Assembly: GCA_035279865.1 (NCBI GenBank)
Contig: DATEGY010000124.1
Span: 136 to 64,135 of the forward strand
Source of the DNA: Gemmatimonadales bacterium
GTDB taxonomy: Bacteria > Gemmatimonadota > Gemmatimonadetes > Gemmatimonadales > GWC2-71-9
Direction: 5' to 3'
DNA length: 64,000 bases
The translations under genes and the position numbers were made by a program. Each line of letters starts with the position of its first letter. Within the stretch, counting starts at the first letter, position 1. Positions 3,729 to 48,448 of the stretch are shown in pieces. A model generated the notes under the pieces. That model saw only the letters and a program-made list of their open reading frames with translations, did not search any database and had not been told where the DNA came from.

Positions 3729-4822
3729 GCCGCGGACCCCTCCCGCTCCTGGCGGGATCGTCCGCCGACCCGGGTCCAACCCTCGCCGACGGCCTCGACC
3801 GCCGGACCGTGACGGGAACGCTGGTGCTCCCGGAGGCGGACGGAGCGGTCCGCTGCGTCGCCTGCGGCCACCGCTGTCTGGTGAGGCCCGGCCGCCGGGG
3901 GATCTGCAAGGTCAGGTTCAACCGGGATGGGGAGCTGCGGGTGCCCGCGGGGTACGTCGCCGCGCTGCAATGCGATCCCACGGAAAAGAAGCCGTTCTTC
4001 CATTGCCTGCCCGGGAGCGACACGCTGACCTTCGGCATGCTGGGGTGCGACTTTCACTGCGGCTACTGCCAGAACTGGCTGACGTCCCAGGCCCTGCGCG
4101 ACCCGTCCGCCGGCGTGCCGCCCACCGAAGTGAGCGCGGAGGCACTCGTGGGGCTCGCCCTGCGGCACGGGGCGCGCGTGGTGGGGTCGTCCTACAACGA
4201 GCCGCTGATCACGGCGGAGTGGGCCGTCGAGGTGTTCCGCCTGGCTCGAGCCCGGGGTCTCCGCACCGCCTTCATCTCCAACGGCAACGCCACACCCGAA
4301 GCGCTCGACTTTCTCCGCCCGTGGACCGACTGCTACAAAGTGGACCTGAAGGCGATGGACCCCGCGCGCTACCGGGAGCTGGGCGGCGTACTGGAGCATG
4401 TGACCGCCACCATTGGCGCGGCGAAGGCCCGAGGCTTCTGGGTCGAGGTCGTGACCCTGATCGTGCCGGGATTCAACGACGACCGGGCTCAGCTCGCTCG
4501 GGCTGCGGAGTTGATCGCCTCGGTCTCTCCCGACATTCCCTGGCACGTGACCGCCTTCCACCCGGACTACCGGATGACGGATCCGAAGGCGACTCCCACC
4601 GAGACGCTGATCGAGGCCTGTGAAATCGGGAGCGCGGCCGGGCTCCGCTTCGTGTACGCCGGGAACCGGCCAGGTGCCGTCGGAGAATGGGAGAACACGT
4701 ACTGCCCGGACTGCGGGGACCTCCTGATCGAGCGGCAGGGATACACGATCAAGGCTCAGCGGATCGGGAGCGACGGGCGTTGTCCCTCGTGCGCCCGCGC
4801 CATCCCCGGGATCTGGGCCTAG
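3725..4822 (+). CDS. AmmeMemoRadiSam-system-type radical SAM enzyme
   Basis: CDFHCGYCQNW (CxxxCxxC) follows DPTEKKPFFHCLPGS. There is an N-terminal CVACGHRC...C cluster and a C-terminal CPDC...CPSC ribbon. The GTG start overlaps the matrixin stop (GTGA). Confidence 0.8.
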   Translation: MSRGPLPLLAGSSADPGPTLADGLDRRTVTGTLVLPEADGAVRCVACGHRCLVRPGRRGICKVRFNRDGELRVPAGYVAALQCDPTEKKPFFHCLPGSDTLTFGMLGCDFHCGYCQNWLTSQALRDPSAGVPPTEVSAEALVGLALRHGARVVGSSYNEPLITAEWAVEVFRLARARGLRTAFISNGNATPEALDFLRPWTDCYKVDLKAMDPARYRELGGVLEHVTATIGAAKARGFWVEVVTLIVPGFNDDRAQLARAAELIASVSPDIPWHVTAFHPDYRMTDPKATPTETLIEACEIGSAAGLRFVYAGNRPGAVGEWENTYCPDCGDLLIERQGYTIKAQRIGSDGRCPSCARAIPGIWA

Positions 4823-5952
4823 TGCTCGCGCTACTCCCCTTCTTGCTCGCGCTCCAGACGCCCGCGAGCCCGTACGACTCCGTCGTGTTGTCGGGGATCC
4901 GGCAGGGCGCCTATCCCGGGGCAGTGCTGGTCATCGGCGGCCGCGACAAGATCACATACGAAAAAGGGTACGGGCGGCTGACCTGGTCGCCAGGCGCTCC
5001 GGCAGACCGCCCGGACTCCACCCTGTTCGATCTCGCGTCACTCACGAAGGCGGTGGCGACCACGACGGCGGCGATGATCCTGGTGGACCGGGGCAAGCTC
5101 AAGCTCGACGTCCCGGTCGCGACGTATTTGCCCGAGTTCAACGGGAAGGGCACCGCCGCCGTCACCGTCCGCATGCTCCTGACTCACACGTCCGGGCTGC
5201 GGGGAGATCTGCCCGTCCCGGTGCTCAAGGCGCTTCCGGATGGGGCGGCGCTGCTTCGCACGGTGCTGGCGGAGACGCCCCGGACGGCGCCCGGCTCGCG
5301 GGTCGTCTACAGCGACCTGAACTTCGTGCTCCTCGGGGAGGTCATCCACCGCCTGTCGGGGGAGCCGCTCGACCAGTTCGTGGCGAACGAAGTCATCGCC
5401 CCGCTGGGACTCGCGCAAACCCGCTACCGGCCGTCCCCACAGCTCGCGCGCCGCACGGCGCCGACCGGAATCTGGCACGGTCATCCCGTGGCGGCCGTGG
5501 TGAACGATCCGACCGCCGCCAAGGCGGGCGGCGTTTCCGGAAACGCCGGTCTCTTTTCCACCGGAGAGGACCTCGCCCGCTTCGCGCAGTTCCTGCTCCG
5601 CGGCGGCACGCGCTCCGACGGTAAGCCCCTCGTGTCTCAGACGACGGTGCGCCTGTTCACCACCCGGTCGCCCCAGGCCGACGTCGGCCCCGACCACCGG
5701 GCCCTCGGCTGGCAGGCGGTGCCTACGGACGAGGAGGTGTCGAGCGCCGGAAGCCTCTTCGGTCCGCGGAGCTTCGGACATACGGGATGGACGGGCACGT
5801 CCCTCTGGATCGATCCCGACCGCGATCTCTTCGTCATCCTGCTCACGAACCGGGCGTTCGCGCCGCGGGCGAAGAAGCCGTTCACGGTCCTGAAGACGGT
5901 CCGGGGCCGCCTGGCGGACGCCGCGGCCCGGGAGAGCGACCGCGCGCGGTAG
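4822..5952 (+). CDS. serine hydrolase, beta-lactamase / PBP4*-like fold
   Basis: SLTKAV (SxxK) motif, YSDLNF, HTGWTG. In-frame GTG 4822 overlaps the upstream TAG by 1 nt. The N-terminus after that start (VLALLPFLLALQ) looks like a signal peptide. Confidence 0.8.
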   Translation: MLALLPFLLALQTPASPYDSVVLSGIRQGAYPGAVLVIGGRDKITYEKGYGRLTWSPGAPADRPDSTLFDLASLTKAVATTTAAMILVDRGKLKLDVPVATYLPEFNGKGTAAVTVRMLLTHTSGLRGDLPVPVLKALPDGAALLRTVLAETPRTAPGSRVVYSDLNFVLLGEVIHRLSGEPLDQFVANEVIAPLGLAQTRYRPSPQLARRTAPTGIWHGHPVAAVVNDPTAAKAGGVSGNAGLFSTGEDLARFAQFLLRGGTRSDGKPLVSQTTVRLFTTRSPQADVGPDHRALGWQAVPTDEEVSSAGSLFGPRSFGHTGWTGTSLWIDPDRDLFVILLTNRAFAPRAKKPFTVLKTVRGRLADAAARESDRAR

Positions 5953-6010: not shown

Positions 6011-6319
6011 ATGACGGATGTGCAGCTCACCGAGGAGCAGCTCAAGACGGCGCTCCGGTCGGTAAAAGATCCTGAGCTCAATCTGAACATCATCGACCTG
6101 GGGCTGGTCTACGGCGTGGACCCCGGGGACGGTGACGTGCGGGTCACCATGACGCTGACCTCGCCCGGCTGCCCGGCGGGACCCCAGATCATTCACGACA
6201 TCTACGAACAGCTGAAGCCCATCCCGGGGGTCAAAGACGTCGACGTTGACTTGGTGTGGGAGCCGTACTGGACGCCCGAAAAAATCGAACCGAAGATCCG
6301 GGCGATGATGGGGTTTTAG
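6011..6319 (+). CDS. DUF59 / SufT-like metal-sulfur cluster assembly factor
   Basis: VKDPELNLNIIDLGLVYGV...VTMTLTSPGCPAGPQI is the classic DUF59 signature. Confidence 0.8.
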   Translation: MTDVQLTEEQLKTALRSVKDPELNLNIIDLGLVYGVDPGDGDVRVTMTLTSPGCPAGPQIIHDIYEQLKPIPGVKDVDVDLVWEPYWTPEKIEPKIRAMMGF

Positions 6320-7566
6320 GAGGCCTGGGCCGTCGCCTGCAGCAGGGCGTCACCGACTACCGAGAGTTGCCAGCGCCGGAGCTCCCCGATACGGGCGAGC
6401 CCGGCGCGATCCGTTGGATGGGCTCTCGCCACGGCTTCGAGGGCGACCCGTCCCAAGAGGACCCCGGGGTCGATCCCCAGCTCGGCGGCCCGGGCGTTGC
6501 GCGCCGCTTTGAGCTTCTCCTGACGCACATCATAGGACGGGTCATGCGGAGGGCGCGGCGGCCGCACCAGACGCGGCAGTTCGCTTTCCGGAACCAGGAG
6601 CGCCCGTTCGACCGCTTCGAGCAGCGCCGGCCCGTGCCGCTTGGCGAGCGATGCCGGGAGATCCTTCACGCGGGCCAGGTCGTCGGCGGTCCGGGGAAGG
6701 GCGCGGCTGACGCCGAGGAGTGACTCGTTGCCGATGATCCGGAATTGGGCTTTGTCTTCGCGACGGGCAATTCCCTCGCGCCAGGCGGAGAGCTCCCGGA
6801 GCACCGCCAGCTGGCGGGGGCGCAGCGCCTTGGCGCCCTTGATGCGGAGAAAGGCCGCGCCGTCATCCTGAGGCACGGTCCACCGCAGTCCTTCCAGTCT
6901 CGCGAATTCTTCCGTCGCCCAGTCCCAGCGGGACAGCTCCCGCAAGCGCGCTTCGAGCGCGTCGCGCAATGCGGGCAAGTGCGCCGTGTCGGCGGCCGCA
7001 TACTCGAGCATACCGGGGGTCAAGGGGCGCTGCGACCAGTCCGCCTTCTGATGAGCCTTGGACAGCTTCAGCCCCAGGTACTTCTCGAGGAGGGCGGCGA
7101 GGCCTATGGCGGGCTCTCCGGCGAGCTGCGCGGCCACGCGGCTGTCGAAGAGGCGGACGGCCCGGAAGCCGTAGTCCCGGTCGAGGGTGCGGAGATCGTA
7201 GTCGGCGTCGTGGAAGATCTTCTCCACGCCCGGGTCGGCGAGGAGTGTGCCCACGGGCGAGAGGTCGGTGATCGCCACGGGGTCGATGATCGCGGTGGCG
7301 CGCCGGGTGGACAACTGGACGAGATAGATGCGGTCCACGAAACGGTGGAAACTCGCCGCCTCCGTGTCCACGGCCACCGGGGACTCCCGGCGGAAGGCGG
7401 TGACCACCTGGGTCAGCGCCTCCGGGGTGGCGATGTATCGCGCGTCGCTAATGCTGATCCGCCTTGCCCAGCTGCTCCAGTCCGGCCGCGATCTCTTCCA
7501 GCGCCTTGGCGAGGGTCTTGTAGAATTCGGGATCGGGGGGTTCGGGTGCGCCGCCCAGCGGGTCAC
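6316..7566 (-). CDS. rnd: ribonuclease D (DEDD 3'-5' exonuclease plus HRDC); 5' end uncertain
   Basis: VAVDTEAASF, FHDADYDLRTL and AAADTAHL exonuclease motifs, with an HRDC-like C-terminus. Similarity to RNase D begins near ARYIATPEAL (about 7440). The upstream 40 codons are R/P/S/W-rich and overlap a better-looking small ORF. Confidence 0.8.
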   Translation of the reverse strand: MTRWAAHPNPPIPNSTRPSPRRWKRSRPDWSSWARRISISDARYIATPEALTQVVTAFRRESPVAVDTEAASFHRFVDRIYLVQLSTRRATAIIDPVAITDLSPVGTLLADPGVEKIFHDADYDLRTLDRDYGFRAVRLFDSRVAAQLAGEPAIGLAALLEKYLGLKLSKAHQKADWSQRPLTPGMLEYAAADTAHLPALRDALEARLRELSRWDWATEEFARLEGLRWTVPQDDGAAFLRIKGAKALRPRQLAVLRELSAWREGIARREDKAQFRIIGNESLLGVSRALPRTADDLARVKDLPASLAKRHGPALLEAVERALLVPESELPRLVRPPRPPHDPSYDVRQEKLKAARNARAAELGIDPGVLLGRVALEAVARAHPTDRAGLARIGELRRWQLSVVGDALLQATAQAS

Positions 7567-9696: not shown

Positions 9697-9827
9697 CTAC
9701 GGCCTCTCCTTCAGGGCTTCGTGGCGTGGCGAACCCCAAACGTAGAAGGGGGTCTATCCGAGTCAAGCCCTTTGGGTTGCGCGCTTGTGGTTGTCTCCGA
9801 GATACCTCAAGAATGAGATACTGATGA

Positions 9828-9944
9828 GTATCTAAGATACCATTGGGTACCCTTCGTGAGCCGGTTTGACGGTTTTTCCGTACGTCTCCCCCTGACGTGT
9901 TTCGGTAGTGGGTACTGTGCCGTATCTTAGATACCCATGGGTAT
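9828..9944. promoter_or_regulatory. two copies of a ~23-bp composite palindromic operator-like site
   Basis: GTATCTAAGATACCATTGGGTAC (9828-9850) and GTATCTTAGATACCCATGGGTAT (9922-9944) match at 19/23. Each contains the 13-bp palindrome GTATCT-N-AGATAC. The second ends in the 14-bp palindrome ATACCCATGGGTAT, which covers the tetR ATG at 9937. Confidence 0.45.
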
Positions 9945-10338
9945 TGTCAAGAAGCAGCGCCGCGCTGAAACGCGGACGCTCCTCCTCGAATCCGGGCTGA
10001 AGCTGATTGCGGAGCAGGGCCTGGAGCTGGCCTCTCTCGACCAGGTGGCCGACGCGGCGGGCTTCACCAAGGGCGCCATCTACCGGCAATTCCGGTCCAA
10101 ACCGGCCTTCATTCTCGCCATCTTCGAGCAGTACGCGGCGGTCGCCCGGGCCGGAGCCGGGGCGCGGCAGGCTCCCTGGTTCATCCCCCTGACGCTCCAG
10201 TTCGCCTCCCACGCCATGCGGGACCCCCTCCTCCGGAGGCGGTTCGCGGTCGTTCTCGCGGAGGCTCCCGACGGGACCACCCCCGACGGACAGCTCCTCA
10301 GGGCTCTGGCCCGCGTGCTCCCGGCACCCCAGGCATGA
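9937..10338 (+). CDS. TetR/AcrR-family transcriptional regulator (short, 133 aa)
   Basis: The N-terminal HTH LDQVADAAGFTKGAIYRQFRSK is typical TetR. The C-terminal domain is unusually short. Confidence 0.75.
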   Translation: MGIVKKQRRAETRTLLLESGLKLIAEQGLELASLDQVADAAGFTKGAIYRQFRSKPAFILAIFEQYAAVARAGAGARQAPWFIPLTLQFASHAMRDPLLRRRFAVVLAEAPDGTTPDGQLLRALARVLPAPQA

Positions 10339-14113: not shown

Positions 14114-14307
14114 GGATTTCCTTCTTTTTTTTCTAAACGACGAGGCGGCTTGTCATCCTGAGCGAGTGCGCGAATGCGCGCGAAGCGAAGGACCTGCTTG
14201 TGCCCGTCCGCGCTCGAACATCCGTTGCCGTGGGAGCGAAGCAGGTCCTTCGCTCGCTGCGCTCGCTCAGGATGACAAGCGCGCCTTCCCTATCAAGAAA
14301 AGAAGGG
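14114..14307. repeat. ~190-bp imperfect palindrome built from two inverted copies of a GTCATCCTGAGCG...GCGAAGGACCTGC repeat
   Basis: The left arm 14149-14199 is complementary to the right arm 14236-14280 at both conserved ends. The outer CCTTCTTTT / AAAAGAAGG tracts are also complementary. Confidence 0.7.
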
Positions 14308-14312
14308 AGAGA

Positions 14313-15656
14313 TCAGTCCGCGCCGACCGGCTCCTGCCGCGTTTGGGGCTCCCGAACGCCCAAATTCCGCTCGATCTCCCGCGTGATGTGCATGGAACAG
14401 AACTTCGGCCCGCACATCGCGCAGAACTCCGCACTCTTGAAGTACTCGGATGGCAGGGACTCGTCGTGGAGCTCCTGCGCCCGCTCGGGGTCGAGTGAAA
14501 GCCGGAACTGCTCCTTCCAGTCGAACGCGTACCGGGCCCGCGACAGCGCGTCATCACGGTCCCGTGCACCCTTCCGGCCGCGGGCGATGTCCGCGGCGTG
14601 CGCCGCGATCTTGTAGGCGATCACACCCTCGCGCACTTCCTCCGCGTTCGGCAGGCCGAGGTGCTCCTTCCGGGTGACGTAGCAGAGCATGTCGGCGCCG
14701 TACCAGCCGATCATCGCCGCTCCGATGGCGCTCGTGATGTGGTCGTATCCGGGCGCGATGTCCGTCACGAGCGGCCCCAGCGTGTAGAACGGCGCCTCGT
14801 GACAGATACGCTTCTGGCGTTCGACGTTCATCTGGATCTGGTCCATCGGGATGTGCCCCGGTCCCTCGATCATCACTTGCACGTCCTTCGCCCAGGCCCG
14901 CTCTGTCAGTTCGCCCAGGGTGTCGAGCTCCGCGAACTGGGCCTTGTCGCTGGCATCGGCCACCGAGCCGGGCCGGAGGGCGTCGCCGAGTGACAGCGTG
15001 ACGTCGTACTTCGCCGCGATCTCGAGGATCTTGTCGAAGTGCGTGTAGAACGGATTCTCCTGGTTGTGGTGCGTCATCCAGTAGGCGTGGAGCGAGCCGC
15101 CGCGGGAAACGATCCCGGTCACCCGGCCCAGGGCCAGCCCGACATAGGCGCGCTTGATGCCGCAATGCACGGTGACATAGTCGACGCCCTGTTGGGCCTG
15201 GTGCTCCACCATGCCGATCAAGTCATCGGCGGTGAGATCCTCAACCTTCCCGATTTCCTGCACCGCCTGATAGATGGGCACGGTGCCGATCGGCACCGGA
15301 GACGCGTCGATGATGGCCTGGCGGATGGCGTCGATGTTGCCGCCGGTGGAGAGATCCATCACGGTGTCGGCGCCGTAGTGCACCGCGTGATGGAGCTTGT
15401 CGAGCTCCCCCTCGATGTCCGAGGTGACCGCCGAGTTGCCGATGTTCGCGTTGATCTTGACCTTGGCCACTTTGCCGATGGCCATGGGGTCGAGCTGCTT
15501 GGCGAGATGGTGGACGTTCGCGGGGATCACGAGACGGCCCGACGCCACTTCGTCGCGGATCGTCTCCGGGGCGAGCTCTTCCCGCTCGGCCACACGCTGC
15601 ATCTCGCGGGTGACCGTGCCCTGGCGGGCGACATGCATCTGCGTAACACTGTCCAT
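14313..15656 (-). CDS. thiC: phosphomethylpyrimidine synthase
   Basis: Full-length ThiC similarity, including the C-terminal [11 protein letters not shown] cluster motif. I chose ATG 15656 ([13 protein letters not shown]...) because it lies directly 3' of the TPP riboswitch. Confidence 0.92.
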
Positions 15657-15657
15657 A

Positions 15658-15737
15658 CTGACTCCCTCCGCCGGTCTTAACCGGGTCAGGTTCTGAGGGT
15701 GTGATCTCAGCCTGCACCGTGCAGGCACCCCTGTCAG
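15658..15737 (-). promoter_or_regulatory. TPP (THI-box) riboswitch
   Basis: The minus-strand RNA is CUGACAGGGGUGCCUGCACGGUGCAGGCUGAGAUCACACCCUCAGAACCUGACCCGGUUAAGACCGGCGGAGGGAGUCAG. It has the conserved CUGAGA, ACCC, GAACCUGA and CGGAGGGA elements and a P1 stem CUGAC/GUCAG. Confidence 0.9.
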
Positions 15738-15816
15738 CTCGGAATCTACTCCGCAGTCCAGCAGGCGCGCACCTGCATCCCATGCCCTTAGTCCTGCTCA
15801 TGACGAGCGAGCACGG

Positions 15817-26065: not shown

Positions 26066-27022
26066 ATGGCTTCTCCCGTCGTCCAGCTCGACCACATCAC
26101 GAAGCGCTTCGCGGGCCATGTGGCCGTCGACGCGCTTTCCCTGCAGGTCCCCTCCGGGACGATCTACGGTCTCCTCGGCCCCAACGGCGCCGGGAAGAGC
26201 ACGTCGATCCGGATGCTGATGCACATCCATGTTCCGGACGAGGGCACCGTCCGCCTGTTCGGGGAGGATGGGAAGACCGGACGGGACCAGTCGGCCCGGA
26301 TCGGCTACCTGCCCGAGGAACGCGGGTTGTATCCCAAGATGCGGGTGCTCGACGTCCTGGTGTTTCTGGCCGAGATGAAGGGTGTGGAACGGCGGAAGGC
26401 GAGGGGCCTGGCGCTGCAGTGGCTGGAGCGGCTGGGGCTTTCGGACTGGCGCATGCGGAAGGTGAACGAGCTCTCGAAGGGCATGCAGCAGAAGGTGCAG
26501 GTCATCTCTACCCTGCTTCACGAACCCGATCTCCTCGTGCTCGACGAGCCCTTCTCCGGCCTCGATCCGGTCAATGCGCAGGTTCTGAAGGACACCGTGA
26601 TGGACTTGAGGAACAAGGGAAAGACGATCCTCCTGTCGACGCACATCATGGAGCAGGCGGAGCAGCTCTGCGACGGCGTGTGCATCATCGCCCGGGGAAA
26701 GAAGCTGGTGGACGGTCCCCTGGCCGAGGTGAAGCGGACCCACGGCGGCCGTCACGTACACGTGGCCTTCGACGGCGCGTCGGGGGATGCGGAGCGGCTC
26801 TTTGCCGATCCGAGGCTGGTGAAGAAAAAGGAAAGCACGGGCCAGTACGCCGAGCTCGAGCTGGCGACCGGCGCCGACGCCCAGGATATCCTCAAAGGCC
26901 TGGTCAATTCGGGCGCGCGCCTCGCGAAGTTCGAGCTCGCGGAGCCCTCGCTCAACAAGATCTTCGTGGATCTCGTGGGACCCGAAGCCGCGAAAGCCGC
27001 GGCGCAGCCGGAGGCCAAATGA
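26066..27022 (+). CDS. ABC transporter ATP-binding protein (ABC-2 / NatA-like)
   Basis: Walker A GPNGAGKST, signature LSKGMQQK, Walker B LLVLDEPFSGLD. Confidence 0.9.
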   Translation: MASPVVQLDHITKRFAGHVAVDALSLQVPSGTIYGLLGPNGAGKSTSIRMLMHIHVPDEGTVRLFGEDGKTGRDQSARIGYLPEERGLYPKMRVLDVLVFLAEMKGVERRKARGLALQWLERLGLSDWRMRKVNELSKGMQQKVQVISTLLHEPDLLVLDEPFSGLDPVNAQVLKDTVMDLRNKGKTILLSTHIMEQAEQLCDGVCIIARGKKLVDGPLAEVKRTHGGRHVHVAFDGASGDAERLFADPRLVKKKESTGQYAELELATGADAQDILKGLVNSGARLAKFELAEPSLNKIFVDLVGPEAAKAAAQPEAK

Positions 27023-28272
27023 ACAAGATCTTCGCGATCGTCCGGCGGGAATTCATCGAGCGGGTGCGCCAGCGCTGGTTCTGGGTGATGGCCCTCCTCG
27101 GCCCCGTGCTCTTCGGCGCGCTCTTCATCGTTCCATCCCTCCTGATGAGCAAGAGCAGCCTGAAGCACATCGTGGTGGTCGACGGGACCACGAACGGCTA
27201 CGGGGCGGCGGTGGTTACCCGGTTCGATCCGGCCAAGATCAAGGCGGTGCGGATCGGGGAGGCTCCGGGGCTGGTCGATTCCCTGACCCAGGCGGTCAGC
27301 GCCAAGACTTTGGATGGCTTCCTCATTCTGACCGATGCCGTGGTCGATTCCGGCAAGGCGGAGTACCGGGCGTCGAACGTGTCCGCTTTCACCACCATCG
27401 GCGAGATCGAGGGGACCCTCCAGCGGCTGACGTCCGACATTCGTCTGCGCCGGGAAGGAGTGGATTCGGCGGCGATCGCCCGGGCTCGGAGCGTGCGAGT
27501 GGATCTCGCGACCATGAAAATCGCCGGCGGGAAGGCCACGAACGAAAGCGCCGCCCAGTCGTTCTCCCTGGCCTACTTCATGGGAATCATCCTCTACATG
27601 GCGATCCTGCTGTACGGGATCAACGTGATGAGCTCGGTGCTGGAGGAGAAGACCAACCGGATCGTCGAAGTCCTGATCTCGTCGGTGAAGCCCTTCCAGC
27701 TGATGGCGGGCAAGGTGATCGGCGTGGGCGCCGTGTCCCTCTTTCAATTCGTGATTTGGGGCGTCCTCGGGCGCTCCGTGTTCCGGTACCGCCACGCCCT
27801 CGGCGCCGATGCGCCCGGGTCGGATCCCGGGATCTTCACGATGCCGCAGATCACGCCCGAAACGGCGGTGGTATTCCTGATCTACTTCATCGGCGGGTTC
27901 ATGCTCTATTCCGCCATGTTCGCGGCCGTGGGCGCCATGTCGTCCAACGAGCAGGAGGCCCGCCAGGCCCAGCAGCCCGTGTCCATGCTCCTGGTGTTGA
28001 GCTTCATCAGTATGTTCGGCATGCTCAACGATCCGAGCTCGACGTTCTCCGTGGCCCTGTCGATGATTCCGTTCACGGCGCCCATCGCGATGCCGGTGCG
28101 CTGGGCCGCGGGCAATCTGCCTCTCAGCGAGGTGGCGATCAGCGTCGCCATTATCGGGGTGTCCATTGTGGGAGTCACCTGGGTTGCCGCGCGGATCTAC
28201 AGAGTGGGGATTCTGATGACCGGAAAGAGGCCGAACCCGAAGGAGCTCCTTCGGTGGATACGGACGGCGTAG
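27019..28272 (+). CDS. ABC-2 type transporter permease (NatB-like)
   Basis: ATG 27019 overlaps the ATPase stop (ATGA). It has an N-terminal TM segment, a large extracytoplasmic loop and then about five C-terminal TM helices. Confidence 0.8.
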   Translation: MNKIFAIVRREFIERVRQRWFWVMALLGPVLFGALFIVPSLLMSKSSLKHIVVVDGTTNGYGAAVVTRFDPAKIKAVRIGEAPGLVDSLTQAVSAKTLDGFLILTDAVVDSGKAEYRASNVSAFTTIGEIEGTLQRLTSDIRLRREGVDSAAIARARSVRVDLATMKIAGGKATNESAAQSFSLAYFMGIILYMAILLYGINVMSSVLEEKTNRIVEVLISSVKPFQLMAGKVIGVGAVSLFQFVIWGVLGRSVFRYRHALGADAPGSDPGIFTMPQITPETAVVFLIYFIGGFMLYSAMFAAVGAMSSNEQEARQAQQPVSMLLVLSFISMFGMLNDPSSTFSVALSMIPFTAPIAMPVRWAAGNLPLSEVAISVAIIGVSIVGVTWVAARIYRVGILMTGKRPNPKELLRWIRTA

Positions 28273-28331
28273 GCAGACGGCTAGTGCGCAGGCAGACGGC
28301 GATAGACTAGACGCACAGACGCACGGATGGG
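28272..28331. repeat. left inverted-repeat arm of the four-helix-bundle gene cassette
   Basis: 28307-28331 CTAGACGCACAGACGCACGGATGGG pairs 24/25 with 28796-28820. Weaker complementarity extends outward to 28272. Internal direct repeats are AGGCAGACGGC x2 and AGACGCAC x2. Confidence 0.7.
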
Positions 28332-28408
28332 ATGAAGTTCGAGTAAACAGGGTACGTCATGCCGAAATCGGATGATGTACCCTGTTTGCTACCACCGCAT
28401 TTTCTCGC

Positions 28409-28789
28409 ATGCCTACTCACCACACACTGAAGGCTTGGCAACACTCGCAGCGACTCGCGGTCGAGTGCGTCAAAGCAGCGAACGGGTTCCCCGACCACGA
28501 GCAGCATGCCCTGGCAGATCAGCTCCGACGTTCGTGCTACAGCATTCCACTCAACATCGCCGAGGGAAATACGAGGAAGGGGACTCGAGACAACCGCCGA
28601 TTCCTGGATATCGCTTGGGGATCACTGGCCGAGGTTCAGACTGCCCTGAGCATCGCCCGGGATGTTGGCTACATCGAGCCCGCCGAGTTCGGGAGGCTAG
28701 AAGCTCTCGCAACCGAGACCAGCAAGACGCTGTTTGGACTTCTCAGGAAAGTCAGCGATCACGCGCAGAAAGTCCCCAGACCCAGATAA
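28409..28789 (+). CDS. four-helix-bundle protein (23S rRNA intervening-sequence protein / Avd-like family)
   Basis: LRRSCYSIPLNIAEGNTRKGTRDNRRFLDIAWGSLAEVQTALSIARDVGYI is the hallmark of this family. Confidence 0.8.
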   Translation: MPTHHTLKAWQHSQRLAVECVKAANGFPDHEQHALADQLRRSCYSIPLNIAEGNTRKGTRDNRRFLDIAWGSLAEVQTALSIARDVGYIEPAEFGRLEALATETSKTLFGLLRKVSDHAQKVPRPR

Positions 28790-28795
28790 CTGCAC

Positions 28796-28858
28796 CCCAT
28801 CTGTGCGTCTGTGCGTCTAGCCTTTCCGCCTGCGCCCTAGTCTTTGCTTTGCCCTGCC
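28796..28858. repeat. right inverted-repeat arm of the four-helix-bundle gene cassette
   Basis: CCCATCTGTGCGTCTGTGCGTCTAG, followed by CCTTTCCGCCTGCGCCCTAG...GCCCTGCC, which is imperfectly complementary to 28272-28306. Confidence 0.7.
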
Positions 28859-28871
28859 TTAAGTTCATCCC

Positions 28872-30725
28872 ATGCTTGACTATGACGTAATCGTCGTCGG
28901 CGGTGGCCACGCCGGCACTGAAGCCTCCGCCCTCTCGGCGCGGTTGGGAGCCAGGACCCTCCTGCTCACCGCCAACCTCGACACGATCGGGATGATGTCC
29001 TGCAACCCCGCGATCGGTGGCATCGCAAAGGGTACCGTCGTCCGCGAAGTCGACGCGCTGGGTGGCATCATGGGCCGCGCCGCCGATCGTGCGACCATCC
29101 AGTTCCGCATGCTGAACCGCTCAAAGGGTCCCGCCGTGTGGGCTCCTCGCGCGCAGTGCGATCGCACTCTGTACCGCCGGGCCGTGCGCTCTCTTCTCGA
29201 GGAGCAGGAGCACCTGGAATTCGCGCAGGGCATGGTCGCTCGCCTGCTCTTCGATCGCGACCAGATCGCCGGTGTCGAGACCACCGATGGCCGGCGCTTT
29301 TCAGCGCGCGCCGTCGTCATCACCGCCGGAACATTCTTGCGCGGGAAGATCCACCTCGGCACCGAGACCCAGATTCCAGCGGGTCGAGCGGGCGATCAAC
29401 CATCGCAAGAAATGGCGCAAGCCATTGAATCACATGGACTTACATCACAACGATTCAAGACGGGGACCCCGCCCCGGATCGATGGTCGAACGGTCGACTG
29501 GTCCAAGCTTCAGCGCCAGGACGGCGAGGACGCGGGGTATCGGTTCTCCTCCTTCGTAAAGGGCGAGCTCCCCCGTCAGGTGCCCTGCTGGATCACCTGG
29601 GCGGGCGAGCCGGTGAAGGAGATCATCAAGAGCCACTTGAAGGAGTCGGCACTCTACGGCGGTGCCATCAGCGGGCGGGGACCCCGGTACTGCCCGTCGG
29701 TCGAAGACAAGATCGTGAAGTTTCCGGACGCCCCCCGGCACCAGATCTTCCTCGAGCCCGAGGGACTGGATACCCACGAGCTATACGTGAATGGGCTCTC
29801 GACCTCCCTGCCGCCAAGCGTCCAGCTCGAATTCCTGCACGCCGTGCCCGGGCTCGAATCAGCGAGGATGACGAGGCCGGGGTACGCCATCGAGTACGAC
29901 TACTATCCCCCTACTCAGCTCACGCCGTGGCTCGAGACGAAACTGGTCGAGCGGCTCTTCTTCGCCGGCCAGATCAACGGCACGACCGGGTACGAGGAGG
30001 CTGCCGGCCAGGGTGCAGTGGCGGGGATCAACGCCGTACGACGGATCAGGGGGCAGGAGCCGGTCATCCTCGGTCGCGACGACGGGTATATCGGCGTCCT
30101 GGTGGACGACCTGGTCACGCGCGGCGTGGACGAGCCCTATCGGCTCTTCACGTCGCGTTCTGAGTTCCGGCTCCTCCTCCGCCAGGACAACGCGCTCCGC
30201 CGCCTCGCACCCGTCGCAGAGCGACTGGGGTTGCTGACGGGCGCCGAGCAACGGGTGGTGGAGACGCGATTCCGGGAAGAGGAAAAAATCCGCGAAGTCG
30301 CGGGGTCGACTTCCCTGTCCCCCGCGGATGCCCCTGTCGAGGTCGGAGGGCTCAAGGGAGCCGAGCGGGTGTCGACCCTGGTGAAGAGGCCGGGCACGTC
30401 GCTTCGGAGCTTGCTCCTGGCAGCGGGAGTAACAGACGATTGGACCGAAGACGCCCTCGTTGCCGCGGAGATCGAGCTCAAGTACGAGGGCTACCTCGCC
30501 CGCGAGAAGGACGCCGCGGCTCGGCTCGCGGAAATGACGGACTTCGCACTGCCGGTGGATCTCCCGTACCCTGAGTTGAACAGCCTCTCGACGGAGGCGC
30601 GACAGAAGCTCGCGGCCGTACGTCCGCAGTCGCTCGCGCAGGCCGGCAGAATCCCCGGTGTCTCCCCTTCCGACCTTCACAACCTCGTAGTCGAAACGAC
30701 TCGCTGGCGCCGACGAGTCGCGTAA
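28872..30725 (+). CDS. mnmG: tRNA uridine-5-carboxymethylaminomethyl(34) synthesis enzyme MnmG (GidA)
   Basis: YDVIVVGGGHAGTEA FAD motif and full-length MnmG similarity (FFAGQINGTTGYEEAAGQG). Confidence 0.95.
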   Translation: MLDYDVIVVGGGHAGTEASALSARLGARTLLLTANLDTIGMMSCNPAIGGIAKGTVVREVDALGGIMGRAADRATIQFRMLNRSKGPAVWAPRAQCDRTLYRRAVRSLLEEQEHLEFAQGMVARLLFDRDQIAGVETTDGRRFSARAVVITAGTFLRGKIHLGTETQIPAGRAGDQPSQEMAQAIESHGLTSQRFKTGTPPRIDGRTVDWSKLQRQDGEDAGYRFSSFVKGELPRQVPCWITWAGEPVKEIIKSHLKESALYGGAISGRGPRYCPSVEDKIVKFPDAPRHQIFLEPEGLDTHELYVNGLSTSLPPSVQLEFLHAVPGLESARMTRPGYAIEYDYYPPTQLTPWLETKLVERLFFAGQINGTTGYEEAAGQGAVAGINAVRRIRGQEPVILGRDDGYIGVLVDDLVTRGVDEPYRLFTSRSEFRLLLRQDNALRRLAPVAERLGLLTGAEQRVVETRFREEEKIREVAGSTSLSPADAPVEVGGLKGAERVSTLVKRPGTSLRSLLLAAGVTDDWTEDALVAAEIELKYEGYLAREKDAAARLAEMTDFALPVDLPYPELNSLSTEARQKLAAVRPQSLAQAGRIPGVSPSDLHNLVVETTRWRRRVA

Positions 30726-37167: not shown

Positions 37168-38120
37168 CGCAGCGCCTTCGCATTGCGCCGCATCCCGGCG
37201 AGCCCGGGGCGAGAGAATGGCGTGTCCTGGTACCGGCGCGCGAAGGCGTCTTCGGAAAGCTCCATGAGACCCGAGCTCGCCGGACTGACGAGTTCCGGAC
37301 GCGGTGCGAGCTCCGCGTCGCCCGCGACCGGCGCGAAGCGCTCATTCCAGGGACAGACGTCCTGACAGACGTCACAGCCGAACAGCCATTCGCCCGTCCG
37401 GGTCCGCTCCTCTTCCGTGAACTCGCCGCGGCGTTCGATGGTGAGGTAGGAAATGCACCGGCGGGCGTCGAGCGTGCGGGGCGCGACGAACGCGTCCGTG
37501 GGACAGGCATCGAGGCAGCGGGTGCAGGTGCCGCAGCGGTCCAGCTCGAAGGGGAGATCGGCCTCGAGCGGCGCGTCGGTGAGCACGACGCCGATGAACG
37601 TGAAGGAGCCCAGGTCGGGGCGGATCAGCATGGTGTTCTTCCCGATCCAGCCGAGGCCCGCGCGTTGCGCGAGCTCGCGTTCGGGAACGGGGCCGGCGTC
37701 GACGTACGCGCGCGAGGTGGACCCAGGTACCAGCCGGCCGATCTCAGCGGCCAGGGCGTCGAGCCGCTTCCCGAGGACGATGTGGTAGTCGGTGGACCAG
37801 GCGTACTGGGCGACCCGGGGACGTGACGCCGGTGCGGGTCCGTGATAGTAGTTGGTCAGCGTGACGACGGCGCAACGGGCATTCGGGAGGATGGATTGCG
37901 GATCTTTGCGCTTCGCGGCCTGACGATTCAGGTAGGTCATCGTGCCGCCATATCCCGCCGCGAGCCACTTCTCGATGAAGTCTCCGTGCGCACTCGGCTC
38001 GAGCGTACAGATCCCCACGGCGGAGAAGCCCAGCTCGAGTGCTCGACGCTTAACCCCGACGCCTTGCCTCTCGACGCTTTGTTTCTTGACGTCTTGTCTC
38101 TCGACGCCTTTCGTAGTCAC
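37164..38120 (-). CDS. queG: tRNA epoxyqueuosine(34) reductase QueG
   Basis: CGTCTRCLDACPTDAF and CDVCQDVCPWN ferredoxin-type clusters, with an ELGF...VGI N-terminal region. I chose GTG 38120 (GTGA overlap with the upstream small ORF, 318 aa). The track ORF extends to 38456. Confidence 0.85.
   Translation of the reverse strand: MTTKGVERQDVKKQSVERQGVGVKRRALELGFSAVGICTLEPSAHGDFIEKWLAAGYGGTMTYLNRQAAKRKDPQSILPNARCAVVTLTNYYHGPAPASRPRVAQYAWSTDYHIVLGKRLDALAAEIGRLVPGSTSRAYVDAGPVPERELAQRAGLGWIGKNTMLIRPDLGSFTFIGVVLTDAPLEADLPFELDRCGTCTRCLDACPTDAFVAPRTLDARRCISYLTIERRGEFTEEERTRTGEWLFGCDVCQDVCPWNERFAPVAGDAELAPRPELVSPASSGLMELSEDAFARRYQDTPFSRPGLAGMRRNAKALR
38043..38115. repeat. tandem 15-bp repeat, about 5 copies (consensus TCGACGCYTTGYCTC on the + strand)
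   Basis: GACG cores sit at 38045, 38058, 38073, 38088 and 38103, giving spacings of 13, 15, 15 and 15. On the minus strand this encodes pentapeptide repeats VERQD/VKKQS/VERQG at the queG 5' end. Confidence 0.7.
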
Positions 38121-46891: not shown

Positions 46892-46909
46892 ATTCCACCC
46901 GAGGTGCTT

Positions 46910-48448
46910 ATGCCGCGTCCGATTCGATTTCGCCCCGCTGGCGCCGCCGTTGCCGTCCTGGCCGTGGCACTGCTCTCCTGGATGGCCGGCCGCGCCTCGG
47001 GCGCGCCGGCAGCCTCCCCGCGTCCCACCGGCGCCGCGGACTCCGCGACCATCACCCACGTGCTGGACTTGCTCCGCAGCGCCGATACCACCGTCTGCGA
47101 GCTGGCCGCCCGCTCCCTCACGCAGGGGTGGGGCGACTACGGTGCACCCATCGGCACACCCTTGACGCGGTCCGTCCTCCGCATCGGGCGCCGGTCGGAA
47201 ACGCCCGCCGTGGTGAACGCCTATCGGGCCGCCACTCGCGACCCCAACACGTGCGTCCGCGACCTCGCGGTGCAACAGGTCGCCGACAATGACTCGAGCA
47301 GCATCAGCCTCTTCACGTCTCTCTCCTCCGACCGCGACCCGGCCCTCCGCGCCTCGGGCGTTCTGGGCATCGGCATCGTCGGCAGTGACCGCTCCCTCGG
47401 CCTCCTGAAGAAGACGATCGCCGACGGCGATTTCCGCGTTCGCGCCATGAGTGCGTGGGCCCTGGGACAACTGGACGACGGGGACGCCGTGCCGTCGCTC
47501 ACCAACGCTCTGAAAGACGACTCCGCCGGCGTACGACAGCTTGCTGCCCGCTCGCTCGGATCCATCGGTGTGGTGAGTGCGCTGAGCCCCCTGCGGCGCG
47601 CCCTGCAGGACCCGGCGGCTCCGGTGCGCCAGACCGCCGCCTGGGCCCTGGGCGAGCTCGGCGAAAAGAGCGCGGTCCCGGCTTTGAGCGCGGCCCTGAA
47701 GGATGCCGACCCCGACGTCCGCGCGACGACCGTGTGGGCGCTGGGCCAGATCTCGGACTCGGTGGCCACCGCGCCCCTCGCCGGCGTGCTGCAGGATGAT
47801 GATCCGCAGGTGCGGCAGATGGCGGTGTGGGCCCTTGGCCAGGTGGGCGATCGCAGCACCGTCCGTCCCCTCAGTCAGGCCCTGAAGGACCGGGACCAGG
47901 ACGTGCGCAGCATGGCGGCATGGGCCCTTGGCCAGGTCGGCGACGAGGCTGCGGTGCCCGCTCTCACCGGCGCCCTCAAGGACCCGGTGTCAGACGTACG
48001 CAGCACGTCGGCGTGGGCCCTCGGCCAGGTCGGTGAGGCGCAGGCGGTCCCCGCGCTGGTGGGTGCACTCAAGGATCAGGCGCCCGATGTGCAAAGCACG
48101 GCGGCCTGGGCGCTGGGTCAAATCGGAAGCGGGCAGGCAGTGGACGGCCTCAAGGCCGCGCTGGCCGACTCGAATGACGACGTCCGCGAGTCCGCGGCGT
48201 GGGCGCTCGCGCAGATCGACGATGACCGGGCCGACCAGGCGTTGACCACGTACTACAAGGGGAGTGATATGGAGATACAGCGCGGGCCGCACCCCCACCC
48301 TCATCCCCACCCGCACCCGCGTTTCCATCTGATGAGCGGGATGCCGATGCCCATGCCGATGCCCATGCCGATGCCGATGCCCATGCCGAATGCGGGCCGG
48401 ATGCGGATGCACTTCCACGCCCCGCGCGTGCGGGTGCGGGTGAACTAG
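46910..48448 (+). CDS. secreted HEAT (PBS-lyase type) repeat protein with His/Met-rich dipeptide-repeat tail
   Basis: Signal-like N-terminus. There are at least 8 repeats of the form D.VR..AAWALGQ.G...AVP.L..ALKD. The C-terminus reads HPHPHPHPHPHPRFHLMSGMPMPMPMPMPMPMPMPNAGRMRMHFHAPRVRVRVN. Confidence 0.8.
   Translation: MPRPIRFRPAGAAVAVLAVALLSWMAGRASGAPAASPRPTGAADSATITHVLDLLRSADTTVCELAARSLTQGWGDYGAPIGTPLTRSVLRIGRRSETPAVVNAYRAATRDPNTCVRDLAVQQVADNDSSSISLFTSLSSDRDPALRASGVLGIGIVGSDRSLGLLKKTIADGDFRVRAMSAWALGQLDDGDAVPSLTNALKDDSAGVRQLAARSLGSIGVVSALSPLRRALQDPAAPVRQTAAWALGELGEKSAVPALSAALKDADPDVRATTVWALGQISDSVATAPLAGVLQDDDPQVRQMAVWALGQVGDRSTVRPLSQALKDRDQDVRSMAAWALGQVGDEAAVPALTGALKDPVSDVRSTSAWALGQVGEAQAVPALVGALKDQAPDVQSTAAWALGQIGSGQAVDGLKAALADSNDDVRESAAWALAQIDDDRADQALTTYYKGSDMEIQRGPHPHPHPHPHPRFHLMSGMPMPMPMPMPMPMPMPNAGRMRMHFHAPRVRVRVN
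48287..48445 (+). repeat. coding microsatellite-like dipeptide repeats: (HP)6, (MP)8, RM, RV
   Basis: CCGCACCCCCACCCTCATCCCCACCCGCACCCG, then ATGCCGATGCCCATGCCG... (48341-48388), then CGGATGCGGATG and CGCGTGCGGGTGCGGGTG. Confidence 0.8.

Follow-up and report, generated by a model that had tools for sequence, protein, structure and literature searches.

What is a gene from the family of 23S rRNA intervening-sequence proteins doing between two long inverted repeats, with a transporter operon on one side and mnmG on the other? The question is raised by a 587-nt cassette in a 64,000-nt stretch of DNA from a Gemmatimonadales bacterium (contig DATEGY010000124.1 of assembly GCA_035279865.1, positions 136 to 64,135; hereafter the window), in which a gene for a four-helix-bundle protein, here called IVP, is bracketed by two arms of mirror-image short repeats. 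The cassette takes up the whole gap between the stop codon of a permease gene for an ATP-binding cassette (ABC) transporter (TAG, 28270-28272) and the mnmG start codon (ATG at 28872); these two genes are its flanks, and an Rfam search detects no rRNA in the window. The explanation that we favour, with somewhat better than even confidence, is that the cassette belongs to a widespread class built around PF05635 genes, of which it is a chromosomal form passed on vertically, that its arms act as DNA, and that gene and bracket together form a nucleoprotein module in which the protein would recognise the arms.

The bracket is well defined in the window itself (Table 1). The core arm CTAGACGCACAGACGCACGGATGGG (28307-28331) matches the minus strand of 28796-28820 at 24 of 25 positions, and none of 100 dinucleotide shuffles gave an equal pair. 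Complementarity spans 39 nt at 87% (28301-28339 with 28788-28826), with an outer block of 16 nt at 88% (28281-28296 with 28825-28840), and the arms contain the sub-repeats GC[GA][TC]AGGCAGACGGC and AGACGCAC, each present twice. When 28262-28885 is folded as RNA, a single long stem forms around the IVP open reading frame (ORF; z = -6.4). A first-pass annotation, made from the letters of the window, had described an element that fills the permease-mnmG gap, 25-nt arms whose complementarity continues outward, arms built from short direct repeats and a 126-codon ORF with the hallmark of the family, and had proposed that the flanks be folded; this anatomy is borne out on every count.

The same design is found throughout the relatives. 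In every clade AGACG units lie in the 5' flank and their complement in the 3' flank, at 2.7 and 2.3 copies per flank (~25x expectation) and with a main spacing of 8 nt, while the opposite orientation is virtually absent. AGACG is the most repeated 5-mer in both flanks and occurs in both flanks of 75 of the 80 clusters that were defined at 90% ORF identity. Pairs or arrays of the unit number 194 within cassette zones as against 2 in 840 kb of related loci outside them. The core arm has no further copy in the window, and the additional arm copies that the first-pass annotation proposed to look for were found neither there nor in the 840 kb of related loci. The innermost part of the arms varies among clades (GGATGGGATG..., CCGCGGTGAACAG and GAGTGGATGTGAGG), yet remains complementary within each locus.

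An arm alignment of all clades for RNAalifold was too disrupted by changes in repeat number, and mismatch counts per locus together with a self-versus-cross test were used in its place. The two arms of a locus evolve in concert: own-arm complementarity has a median score of 53, compared with 22 for arms taken from loci with <78% ORF identity, and the own-arm score is the higher one in 111 of 117 loci (p = 8e-21). Over short periods the arms diverge more quickly than the IVP gene does. Whole repeat blocks differ between loci whose ORFs are 100% identical (L001/L167 and L116/L163) or 99.7% identical (L082/L083), and in the pair L190/L191 (ORFs 99.3% identical) a mirrored 13-nt block is present in both arms of one locus and in neither arm of the other, which is direct evidence of arm-to-arm copying. 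The cassette as a whole has also been turned around. It is inverted in one clade of ~10 loci (90-100% mutual identity), in L020 and in L029/L031, which amounts to three or more inversions that arose independently, became fixed in their clades and have their breakpoints inside the arms.

Whether the arms are maintained as an RNA stem or as a DNA repeat can be read from their mismatches, since a stem selected as RNA should accumulate G.U mismatches on the transcribed strand in excess of A.C. Among 74 cluster representatives the arms contain 112 G.U, 120 A.C and 259 transversion mismatches (p = 0.65). The internal hairpin that lies between the 5' arm and the IVP ORF has 14 G.U, 0 A.C and 9 other mismatches in its stem (36 distinct relatives, this strand; p = 1e-4), and the arms differ from it significantly (Fisher p = 9e-5). 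That a hairpin a few bases away passes indicates that the test has power and that the arms fail it; by this comparison there is no selection for RNA pairing on the arms at the Gemmatimonadales locus.

The hairpin is probably the intrinsic terminator or 3'-end hairpin of the ABC operon transcript. It has the form A-tract, GC-stem and T-tract in many loci, with a T-run 3' of the hairpin in some relatives. In the old inverted clade it has decayed, although the -10 box is still present there, as are arms of up to 13 units, which fits an ABC-operon terminator made jobless by the flip. In 73 of 120 relatives the IVP ATG is preceded, at a distance of 5-8 nt, by the end of a TANNNT hexamer, compared with a 2% background, and the mnmG ATG has such a hexamer at the same distance in nearly all of 94 distinct relatives; Shine-Dalgarno (SD)-like motifs precede IVP in 0 of the 120 and mnmG in none of the 94. 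The -10-like boxes at both start codons and the lack of SD motifs suggest that IVP and mnmG have their own promoters and leaderless messages. The 5' arm is placed upstream of the candidate IVP promoter. A scan of this region of the window for canonical sigma-70 promoters and intrinsic terminators returned nothing on the + strand. The first-pass annotation had proposed that the stem is an RNase III processing site uncoupling the ABC transcript from mnmG; the absence of wobble bias, the terminator-like hairpin between the arms and the separate -10-like boxes without SD motifs disfavour this role.

Two further observations concern the arms and the mnmG start region. The inner 5' arm (28322-28339) is also 83% complementary to the mnmG -10/start-codon region (28861-28878; CACGGATGGGATGAAGTT / AAGTTCATCCCATGCTTG); this match is not kept in the closest relatives (L081-L083) and is thus probably due to chance. 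The outer end of the 3' arm (window 28825-28850; many relatives have CTAGCCTTTGCC) is placed ~30-31 nt upstream of the mnmG ATG, at the position of a -35 element, and the mnmG promoter may have recruited it.

The cassette is an old, vertically inherited resident of the permease-mnmG site rather than a newcomer. When one genome per species was scanned, 34 Gemmatimonadales metagenome-assembled genomes (MAGs) were seen to have an IVP orthologue at 60-88% protein identity, with the gene order ABC ATPase - permease - IVP - mnmG - parA wherever the contig reaches. As a sample independent of the gene, metagenome contigs were searched for the C-terminus of the permease by means of a degenerate pattern (ILMTGKRP...RW). 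The 120 loci obtained comprise 80 with IVP in the orientation of the window, 10 with the cassette inverted, 9 with mnmG directly after the permease, 16 with other contexts and 5 at a contig edge. The sporadic distribution that indicates horizontal gain, a trait of intervening sequences (IVSs), was not seen, the gene being syntenic in the 34 MAG species and in ~90 of the 120 unbiased loci. The empty sites that the first-pass annotation had proposed to look for at this junction do exist (the 9 loci without the gene). Three lack arms and have mnmG preceded by a canonical terminator and then a -10-like box; L092 and L173 retain both arms around a deleted ORF; L098, L099 and L180 are left with a solo 3' arm; and L177 has neither canonical terminator nor arm remnants. 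The arm remnants indicate that the cassette is lost by internal deletion rather than by precise excision. With a single copy, synteny in ~90 of 120 relatives and this mode of loss, the suggestion in the annotation of a mobile cassette fails at this locus. Among the same relatives, L135 has a 1.6-kb segment without the IVP gene between permease and mnmG (480-2096), and the L028 permease carries an in-frame stop in its ILMTGKRP motif (ILMT*KRP), so that the gene of this MAG is a pseudogene or else was misread in sequencing.

The protein has been maintained along with its position. Orthologues from the Gemmatimonadales loci give a ratio of nonsynonymous to synonymous change (dN/dS) of ~0.15 at saturated synonymous sites (median proportion of synonymous differences, pS, 0.75), and 117 of 121 orthologous ORFs pass a filter for stop-free frames of 360-400 nt. 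Purifying selection of this strength despite saturation, together with the intact ORFs, indicates that IVP encodes a functional protein. Its assignment is secure: it matches PF05635 (23S_rRNA_IVP) with E 7e-32 (110 bits, cutoff 33.8) and TIGR02436 with E 2.7e-30 (104.8 bits, cutoff 24), and contains the motifs NIAEG, FLDIAWGSLAEVQT and GYI. The RxxxSxxxNxxE motif that is conserved in the PF05635-type family (PMC3936711) is present as LRRSCYSIPLNIAEG, with R41, S45 and N49 invariant and E52 kept in at least 90% of 27 aligned close homologues. A further trait of the family is assembly into a homopentameric barrel. The AlphaFold2 (AF2) monomer model of IVP has four long helices and a predicted local distance difference test score (pLDDT) of 94. 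Foldseek superposes it on Xcc0516 (2gsc) with a template-modelling (TM) score of 0.89-0.97 and a root-mean-square deviation of 0.8 A, and on BT_0352 (2rld) with TM 0.77-0.89; 2gsc is also found by a sequence search of the PDB (E 6e-18). More distant is Avd, the accessory protein of diversity-generating retroelements (DGRs), both alone and in the DGR ribonucleoprotein (4dwl and 8ub7; TM 0.72-0.86). The PHROG Avd profile matches IVP with E 1e-6, and the NCBIfam DGR Avd equivalog gives only 18 bits at a cutoff of 80.

The bracket is not a peculiarity of the Gemmatimonadales. A bracket of mirror-image arrays of short tandem units is a hallmark of the PF05635 cassette. Flanking inverted repeats at z > 5 were found at 21 of 45 distant PF05635 loci, the bracketed ones coming from Peribacteria of the candidate phyla radiation (CPR), Planctomycetota, Verrucomicrobiota, Lentisphaerae, Myxococcota and Melioribacteraceae. 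Units of 6-9 nt are repeated in the arms of these loci, and units of 15 nt in those of a second Gemmatimonadales paralog, L040. When tighter flanks were used, 36% of these distant PF05635 genes were bracketed compared with 1.2% of 608 control ORFs from the same loci (Fisher p = 2e-15). Such a survey of neighbourhoods had been proposed by the first-pass annotation, and its outcome is that the bracket recurs outside rRNA in many phyla. The same design is present in finished genomes of isolates: Gemmatirosa kalamazoonensis KBS708 has (GGAGGGCA)n arms and a copy on plasmid 1 (1,007,583-1,007,930), the (TCAGGAG)n arms of Nostoc punctiforme (gene NPUN_RS35280) fill both intergenic gaps, and in Rhodopirellula maiorica a PF05635 gene with heptamer arms lies within a tRNA gene array. 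In Azospirillum lipoferum 4B (L206; plasmid AZO_p2, NC_016586.1 12910-16236) a PF05635 ORF with tandem-unit inverted arms lies within a 23S rRNA gene (Rfam large-subunit model, 2537 bits), at a site that we take, from our own reading of the flanking sequence, to be the helix-45 region. This element (~1427-1895, about 470 nt; fold z = -10.4) is unannotated in the record, and its location shows that a classical ORF-bearing IVS has the same tandem-unit bracket. None of 20 other distant PF05635 loci is in rRNA. The proposal that the window holds an IVS-type element outside rRNA is supported by this verified IVS, which the element resembles in family, size and bracket design. Proteins of the type found in the Planctomycetota-Verrucomicrobiota-Chlamydiota (PVC) group are 55-90% identical across phyla and have TCTTAA-like hexamer arms in common, from which it follows that cassettes move on long time scales. 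We found no description of mirrored short-repeat arrays bracketing PF05635 genes in the open-access literature.

Several of the distant loci have unusual arrangements. In the R. maiorica SM1 locus (L039, NZ_ANOG01000614.1; 2356-5070) the spacers of the tRNA array are hairpins of heptamer tandem arrays, one of which holds the PF05635 ORF (4002-4360), read in the opposite direction to the tRNA genes. A Pirellulaceae MAG (L077, CAVQPV010000027.1; 3850-6830) carries at least five near-identical PF05635 cassettes in tandem, each ~610 nt long and with arrays of (GTACTC)n / (GAGTAC)n as its arms, which ORF callers translate as YSYSYS / EYEYEY tails. In a Myxococcales MAG (L070) two ORF-less hairpins of heptamer arrays (CAGGGAA...TCCCTAA; 5283-5350 and 5715-5790) lie in frame inside a gene for an NAD-dependent epimerase, and the two PF05635 cassettes at the same locus (3858-4362 and 6036-6528) differ from each other in arm unit.

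Our favoured explanation can be set out part by part. A cassette of this class that is situated in a 23S rRNA gene would be what is known as an intervening sequence. The cassette would comprise, in order, the 5' arm, the hairpin that ends the ABC transcript, a -10 box of its own, a leaderless IVP mRNA and the 3' arm, with mnmG following 3' of it as a separate unit that also has its own -10 box and a leaderless mRNA. The arms would work as DNA and not as an RNA stem; their likeness would be kept up by slippage of the repeats and by copying between the arms, whether this occurs as gene conversion or as template switching, and the crossover outcome of the same recombination would have flipped the cassette on the three or more occasions recorded. 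Of all this, the analysis shows the anatomy, the vertical inheritance, the selection on the protein, the concerted evolution of the arms as DNA with inversion as its by-product, the lack of selection for RNA pairs and the bracket across the family, whereas recognition of the arms is inferred. The polar AGACG core may be the recognition motif. Its reader would most economically be the four-helix-bundle protein that the cassette itself encodes, a putative pentamer whose DGR relative Avd binds structured RNA (stem-loops) in the DGR ribonucleoprotein (bioRxiv 10.1101/2023.10.23.563531).

Some observations sit uneasily with this account. Protein binding to the arms is purely a candidate interaction, and a period of 8 nt does not stay in phase with the turns of B-DNA, an awkward fit for simple operator arrays on double-stranded DNA. 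The promoters and leaderless messages proposed for IVP and mnmG are deduced from the position of motifs, and a strict hairpin-plus-T-run test for a terminator was passed by only 19 of 119 loci (5 among shuffled controls). In three isolate genomes, including the rRNA IVS, a hand count of arm mismatches leans towards G.U (10 vs 2), which suggests that RNA pairing may matter in other contexts. About one quarter of the orthologous loci have weak arm complementarity but an intact ORF, indicating that arm pairing is not essential to the gene. The first-pass annotation had named relatives carrying the gene without flanking complementarity as evidence against its IVS-type element; most relatives keep the complementarity, the weak quarter apart.

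Arms that pair in a read-through ABC-IVP-mnmG transcript, where an RNase III cut would free the IVP mRNA and part the messages, would account for the long predicted stem, for the complementarity upheld in non-repetitive inner segments that vary by clade and for the G.U lean of the isolates, and the presence of the same bracket in a real 23S IVS is in keeping with RNase III cleavage of the Coxiella IVS (PMC4990558). We nevertheless regard this as decidedly unlikely: the large comparison shows no wobble bias in the arms, in contrast to the hairpin, and transversions are their commonest mismatch, the terminator-like hairpin sits between the arms, both genes have -10-like boxes at the ATG and no SD, and IVP remains intact in the inverted clades. 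It is also unlikely, though less so, that the arms are a functionless relic of an old insertion, alike only through gene conversion and slippage, so that the protein alone matters. The neutral-looking mismatch spectrum, the hypervariable repeat number, the decayed arms beside intact ORFs at some loci and the arms surviving at the ORF-deleted loci L092 and L173 would all follow. What such a relic leaves unexplained is that clusters with saturated synonymous sites have kept the AGACG core together with its polarity and the spacing of 8 nt, as gene conversion alone does not conserve sequence between species, and that the same design surrounds distant family members in many phyla.

Recombination between the arms could in principle serve as an active switch that changes IVP or mnmG expression within populations, as both orientations occur among relatives with breakpoints inside the arms. 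Such phase variation is barely credible here, and an inverton of this kind was rejected: orientation follows clades, ORFs of the inverted ~10-locus clade are at most 81.5% identical in DNA to any normal-orientation locus, no near-identical pair has opposite orientations, the -10 boxes of both genes are retained either way, and ORF and Pfam calls reveal no invertase or recombinase gene within ~5 kb of the cassette. A currently mobile cassette resembling a miniature inverted-repeat transposable element (MITE) or insertion sequence (IS), with a transposase acting in trans from elsewhere, is very improbable as well. The arms do look like terminal inverted repeats, the family is spread across phyla at 55-90% protein identity, and elsewhere in the family there are the Pirellulaceae tandem array and copies on plasmids. 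At this locus, by contrast, the cassette keeps one position throughout the order, shows no evident target duplication and leaves arms or a solo arm when lost; a dispersed repeat of either type was rejected, as the arms occur once in the window and nowhere in 840 kb of related DNA and the empty sites are terminator-only or deletion remnants.

A broader proposal, which we put forward tentatively and with well under even confidence, is that PF05635 protein and mirror arrays make up an autonomous element of the foldback type, in which the pentamer would read its own bracket; 23S IVSs would be copies that landed in rDNA, and the ORF-less hairpins of the R. maiorica tRNA array and the Myxococcales epimerase gene would be non-autonomous derivatives. 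If true, this would give the orphan family of IVS proteins and free-standing Avd-like proteins a nucleic-acid ligand and a role. To our knowledge, the PF05635 family, Avd apart, has been without an assigned function since the 1990s. With a bracket of mirrored arrays that accompanies the gene within rRNA and elsewhere, a large family that includes Avd and is found in rRNA genes, tRNA arrays and cas operons becomes a testable module of protein plus site, and ORF-bearing rRNA IVSs can be viewed as a single insertion context of a cassette with wider occurrence. A natural comparative series is available in the Gemmatimonadales, with more than 100 orthologous copies, inversions, ORF deletions and solo arms, and cultured carriers are available in G. 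kalamazoonensis, N. punctiforme, A. lipoferum and R. maiorica.

Comparison with known systems places the cassette between several of them. The Correia elements of Neisseria and the palindromic elements of Rickettsia are hairpin-type repeats that lie in genes and transcripts, are multi-copy and contain no gene. The cassette resembles them in that inverted repeats are tolerated inside transcripts, as they are in the ORF-less tandem-unit hairpins of L070 (epimerase gene) and L039 (between tRNA genes), and differs in being single-copy with a conserved gene and tandem-unit arms. Foldback transposons (Drosophila FB) and the plant Ac and En elements have terminal regions of reiterated short motifs. 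With invertons and foldback transposons the cassette shares a segment bounded by inverted repeats that is found in both orientations and has reiterated short motifs at its ends; unlike them, it has no invertase or transposase among its neighbours, its orientation is fixed by clade and the locus offers no evidence of transposition. Cyanobacterial short tandemly repeated repetitive (STRR) heptamers are intergenic arrays of short tandem repeats. Heptamer direct-repeat arrays are known in both Beggiatoaceae and cyanobacteria, for example TAACTGA (PMC4679880). The arms are similar to these in their 6-8-nt units, their intergenic position beside start codons and a unit length typical of the lineage; whereas the direct arrays are tied to no particular gene, the mirror arrays described here come as a pair around members of a single gene family.

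Among ORF-bearing 23S IVSs, those of Leptospira, of Coxiella (S23p) and L206 likewise have a PF05635 ORF within terminal inverted repeats and a similar size, and L206 shares arms made of short tandem units. The cassette is distinct in lying outside rRNA and in having its own -10-like box and terminator-like hairpin. In Coxiella, RNase III cuts the 28-bp terminal stem of the IVS, which is 428-444 nt long and has an S23p that is decaying and not made (PMC4990558); IVP, unlike S23p, is under purifying selection and vertically inherited, and the arms, unlike IVS stems excised by RNase III, lack selection for RNA pairs (112 G.U vs 120 A.C). 23S_rRNA_IVP genes have also been noted inside cas operons (PMC3936711) and in 16S/23S insertions of CPR bacteria (PMC11270868). 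With DGR Avd the protein has the four-helix-bundle fold in common. A DGR was rejected: the neighbours of the cassette (ABC transporter genes, mnmG, parA and parB) include no reverse transcriptase, the repeats are inverted instead of forming a direct pair of template and variable repeats (TR/VR), and the Avd equivalog score is below cutoff.

Table 1. Features of the cassette and its neighbours, in window coordinates.
Feature	Position	Strand	Basis or remarks
ABC transporter ATPase	26066-27022		match to PF00005
ABC-2-type permease, upstream neighbour	27013..28272	+	frame and C-terminal ILMTGKRP...RW motif kept in relatives
5' arm	28273..28339	+	polar AGACG array (28275, 28294, 28309, 28317), then non-repetitive inner segment 28322-28339
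Internal hairpin	28342..28390	+	19-bp stem, 11-nt loop GCCGAAATCGG; between 5' arm and IVP ORF; absent from the first-pass annotation
-10-like hexamer CATTTT (variant)	28398..28403	+	5 nt before IVP start codon; candidate promoter, leaderless mRNA
IVP gene (four-helix-bundle protein, PF05635/TIGR02436, 126 aa)	28409..28789	+	profile matches, AF2 model, orthologue conservation
3' arm	28788..28858	+	mirror array, CGTCT units at 28805 and 28813; begins at IVP stop codon; outer part GCCTGCGCCCTAG...
-10-like hexamer TAAGTT	28860..28865	+	6 nt before mnmG ATG; candidate mnmG promoter, leaderless
mnmG (gidA), downstream neighbour	28872..30725	+	PF01134 E 3e-156

Beyond the features in Table 1, ORF calls with Pfam labels place parA and then parB 3' of mnmG, and PADLOC gave no match to a defence system. 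Over the cassette the only hit to a known RNA family was a sub-threshold one to ROSE_3 on the hairpin (21 bits, E 0.067), which we take as chance.

Repeats of other kinds occur elsewhere in the window. Other short-period arrays were considered as cassette-like brackets and rejected: hexamer DNA repeats at 48287-48442 code for the low-complexity C-terminal tail (HP..., MPMPMP..., RVRV) of ORF 46904-48448, a tail that may be metal-binding and is unrelated to the cassette, and the 3-4 direct copies of a 15-nt unit (GACGCCTTGTCTCTC-like) at 38058-38110, upstream of a minus-strand QueG-like gene, have no mirror partner. An intergenic foldback of ~130 nt at 14148-14280, with 22-nt arms that are 95% complementary (GTCATCCTGAGCGAG...CTCGCTCAGGATGAC), has the look of a repetitive extragenic palindromic (REP) or MITE-type element. 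Two palindromic GTATCTAAGATAC-type motifs ~100 nt apart at 9818-9944, just upstream of ORF 9937-10338, are operator-like, and a thiamine pyrophosphate (TPP) riboswitch is found on the minus strand at 15646-15742 (Rfam RF00059, 71 bits).

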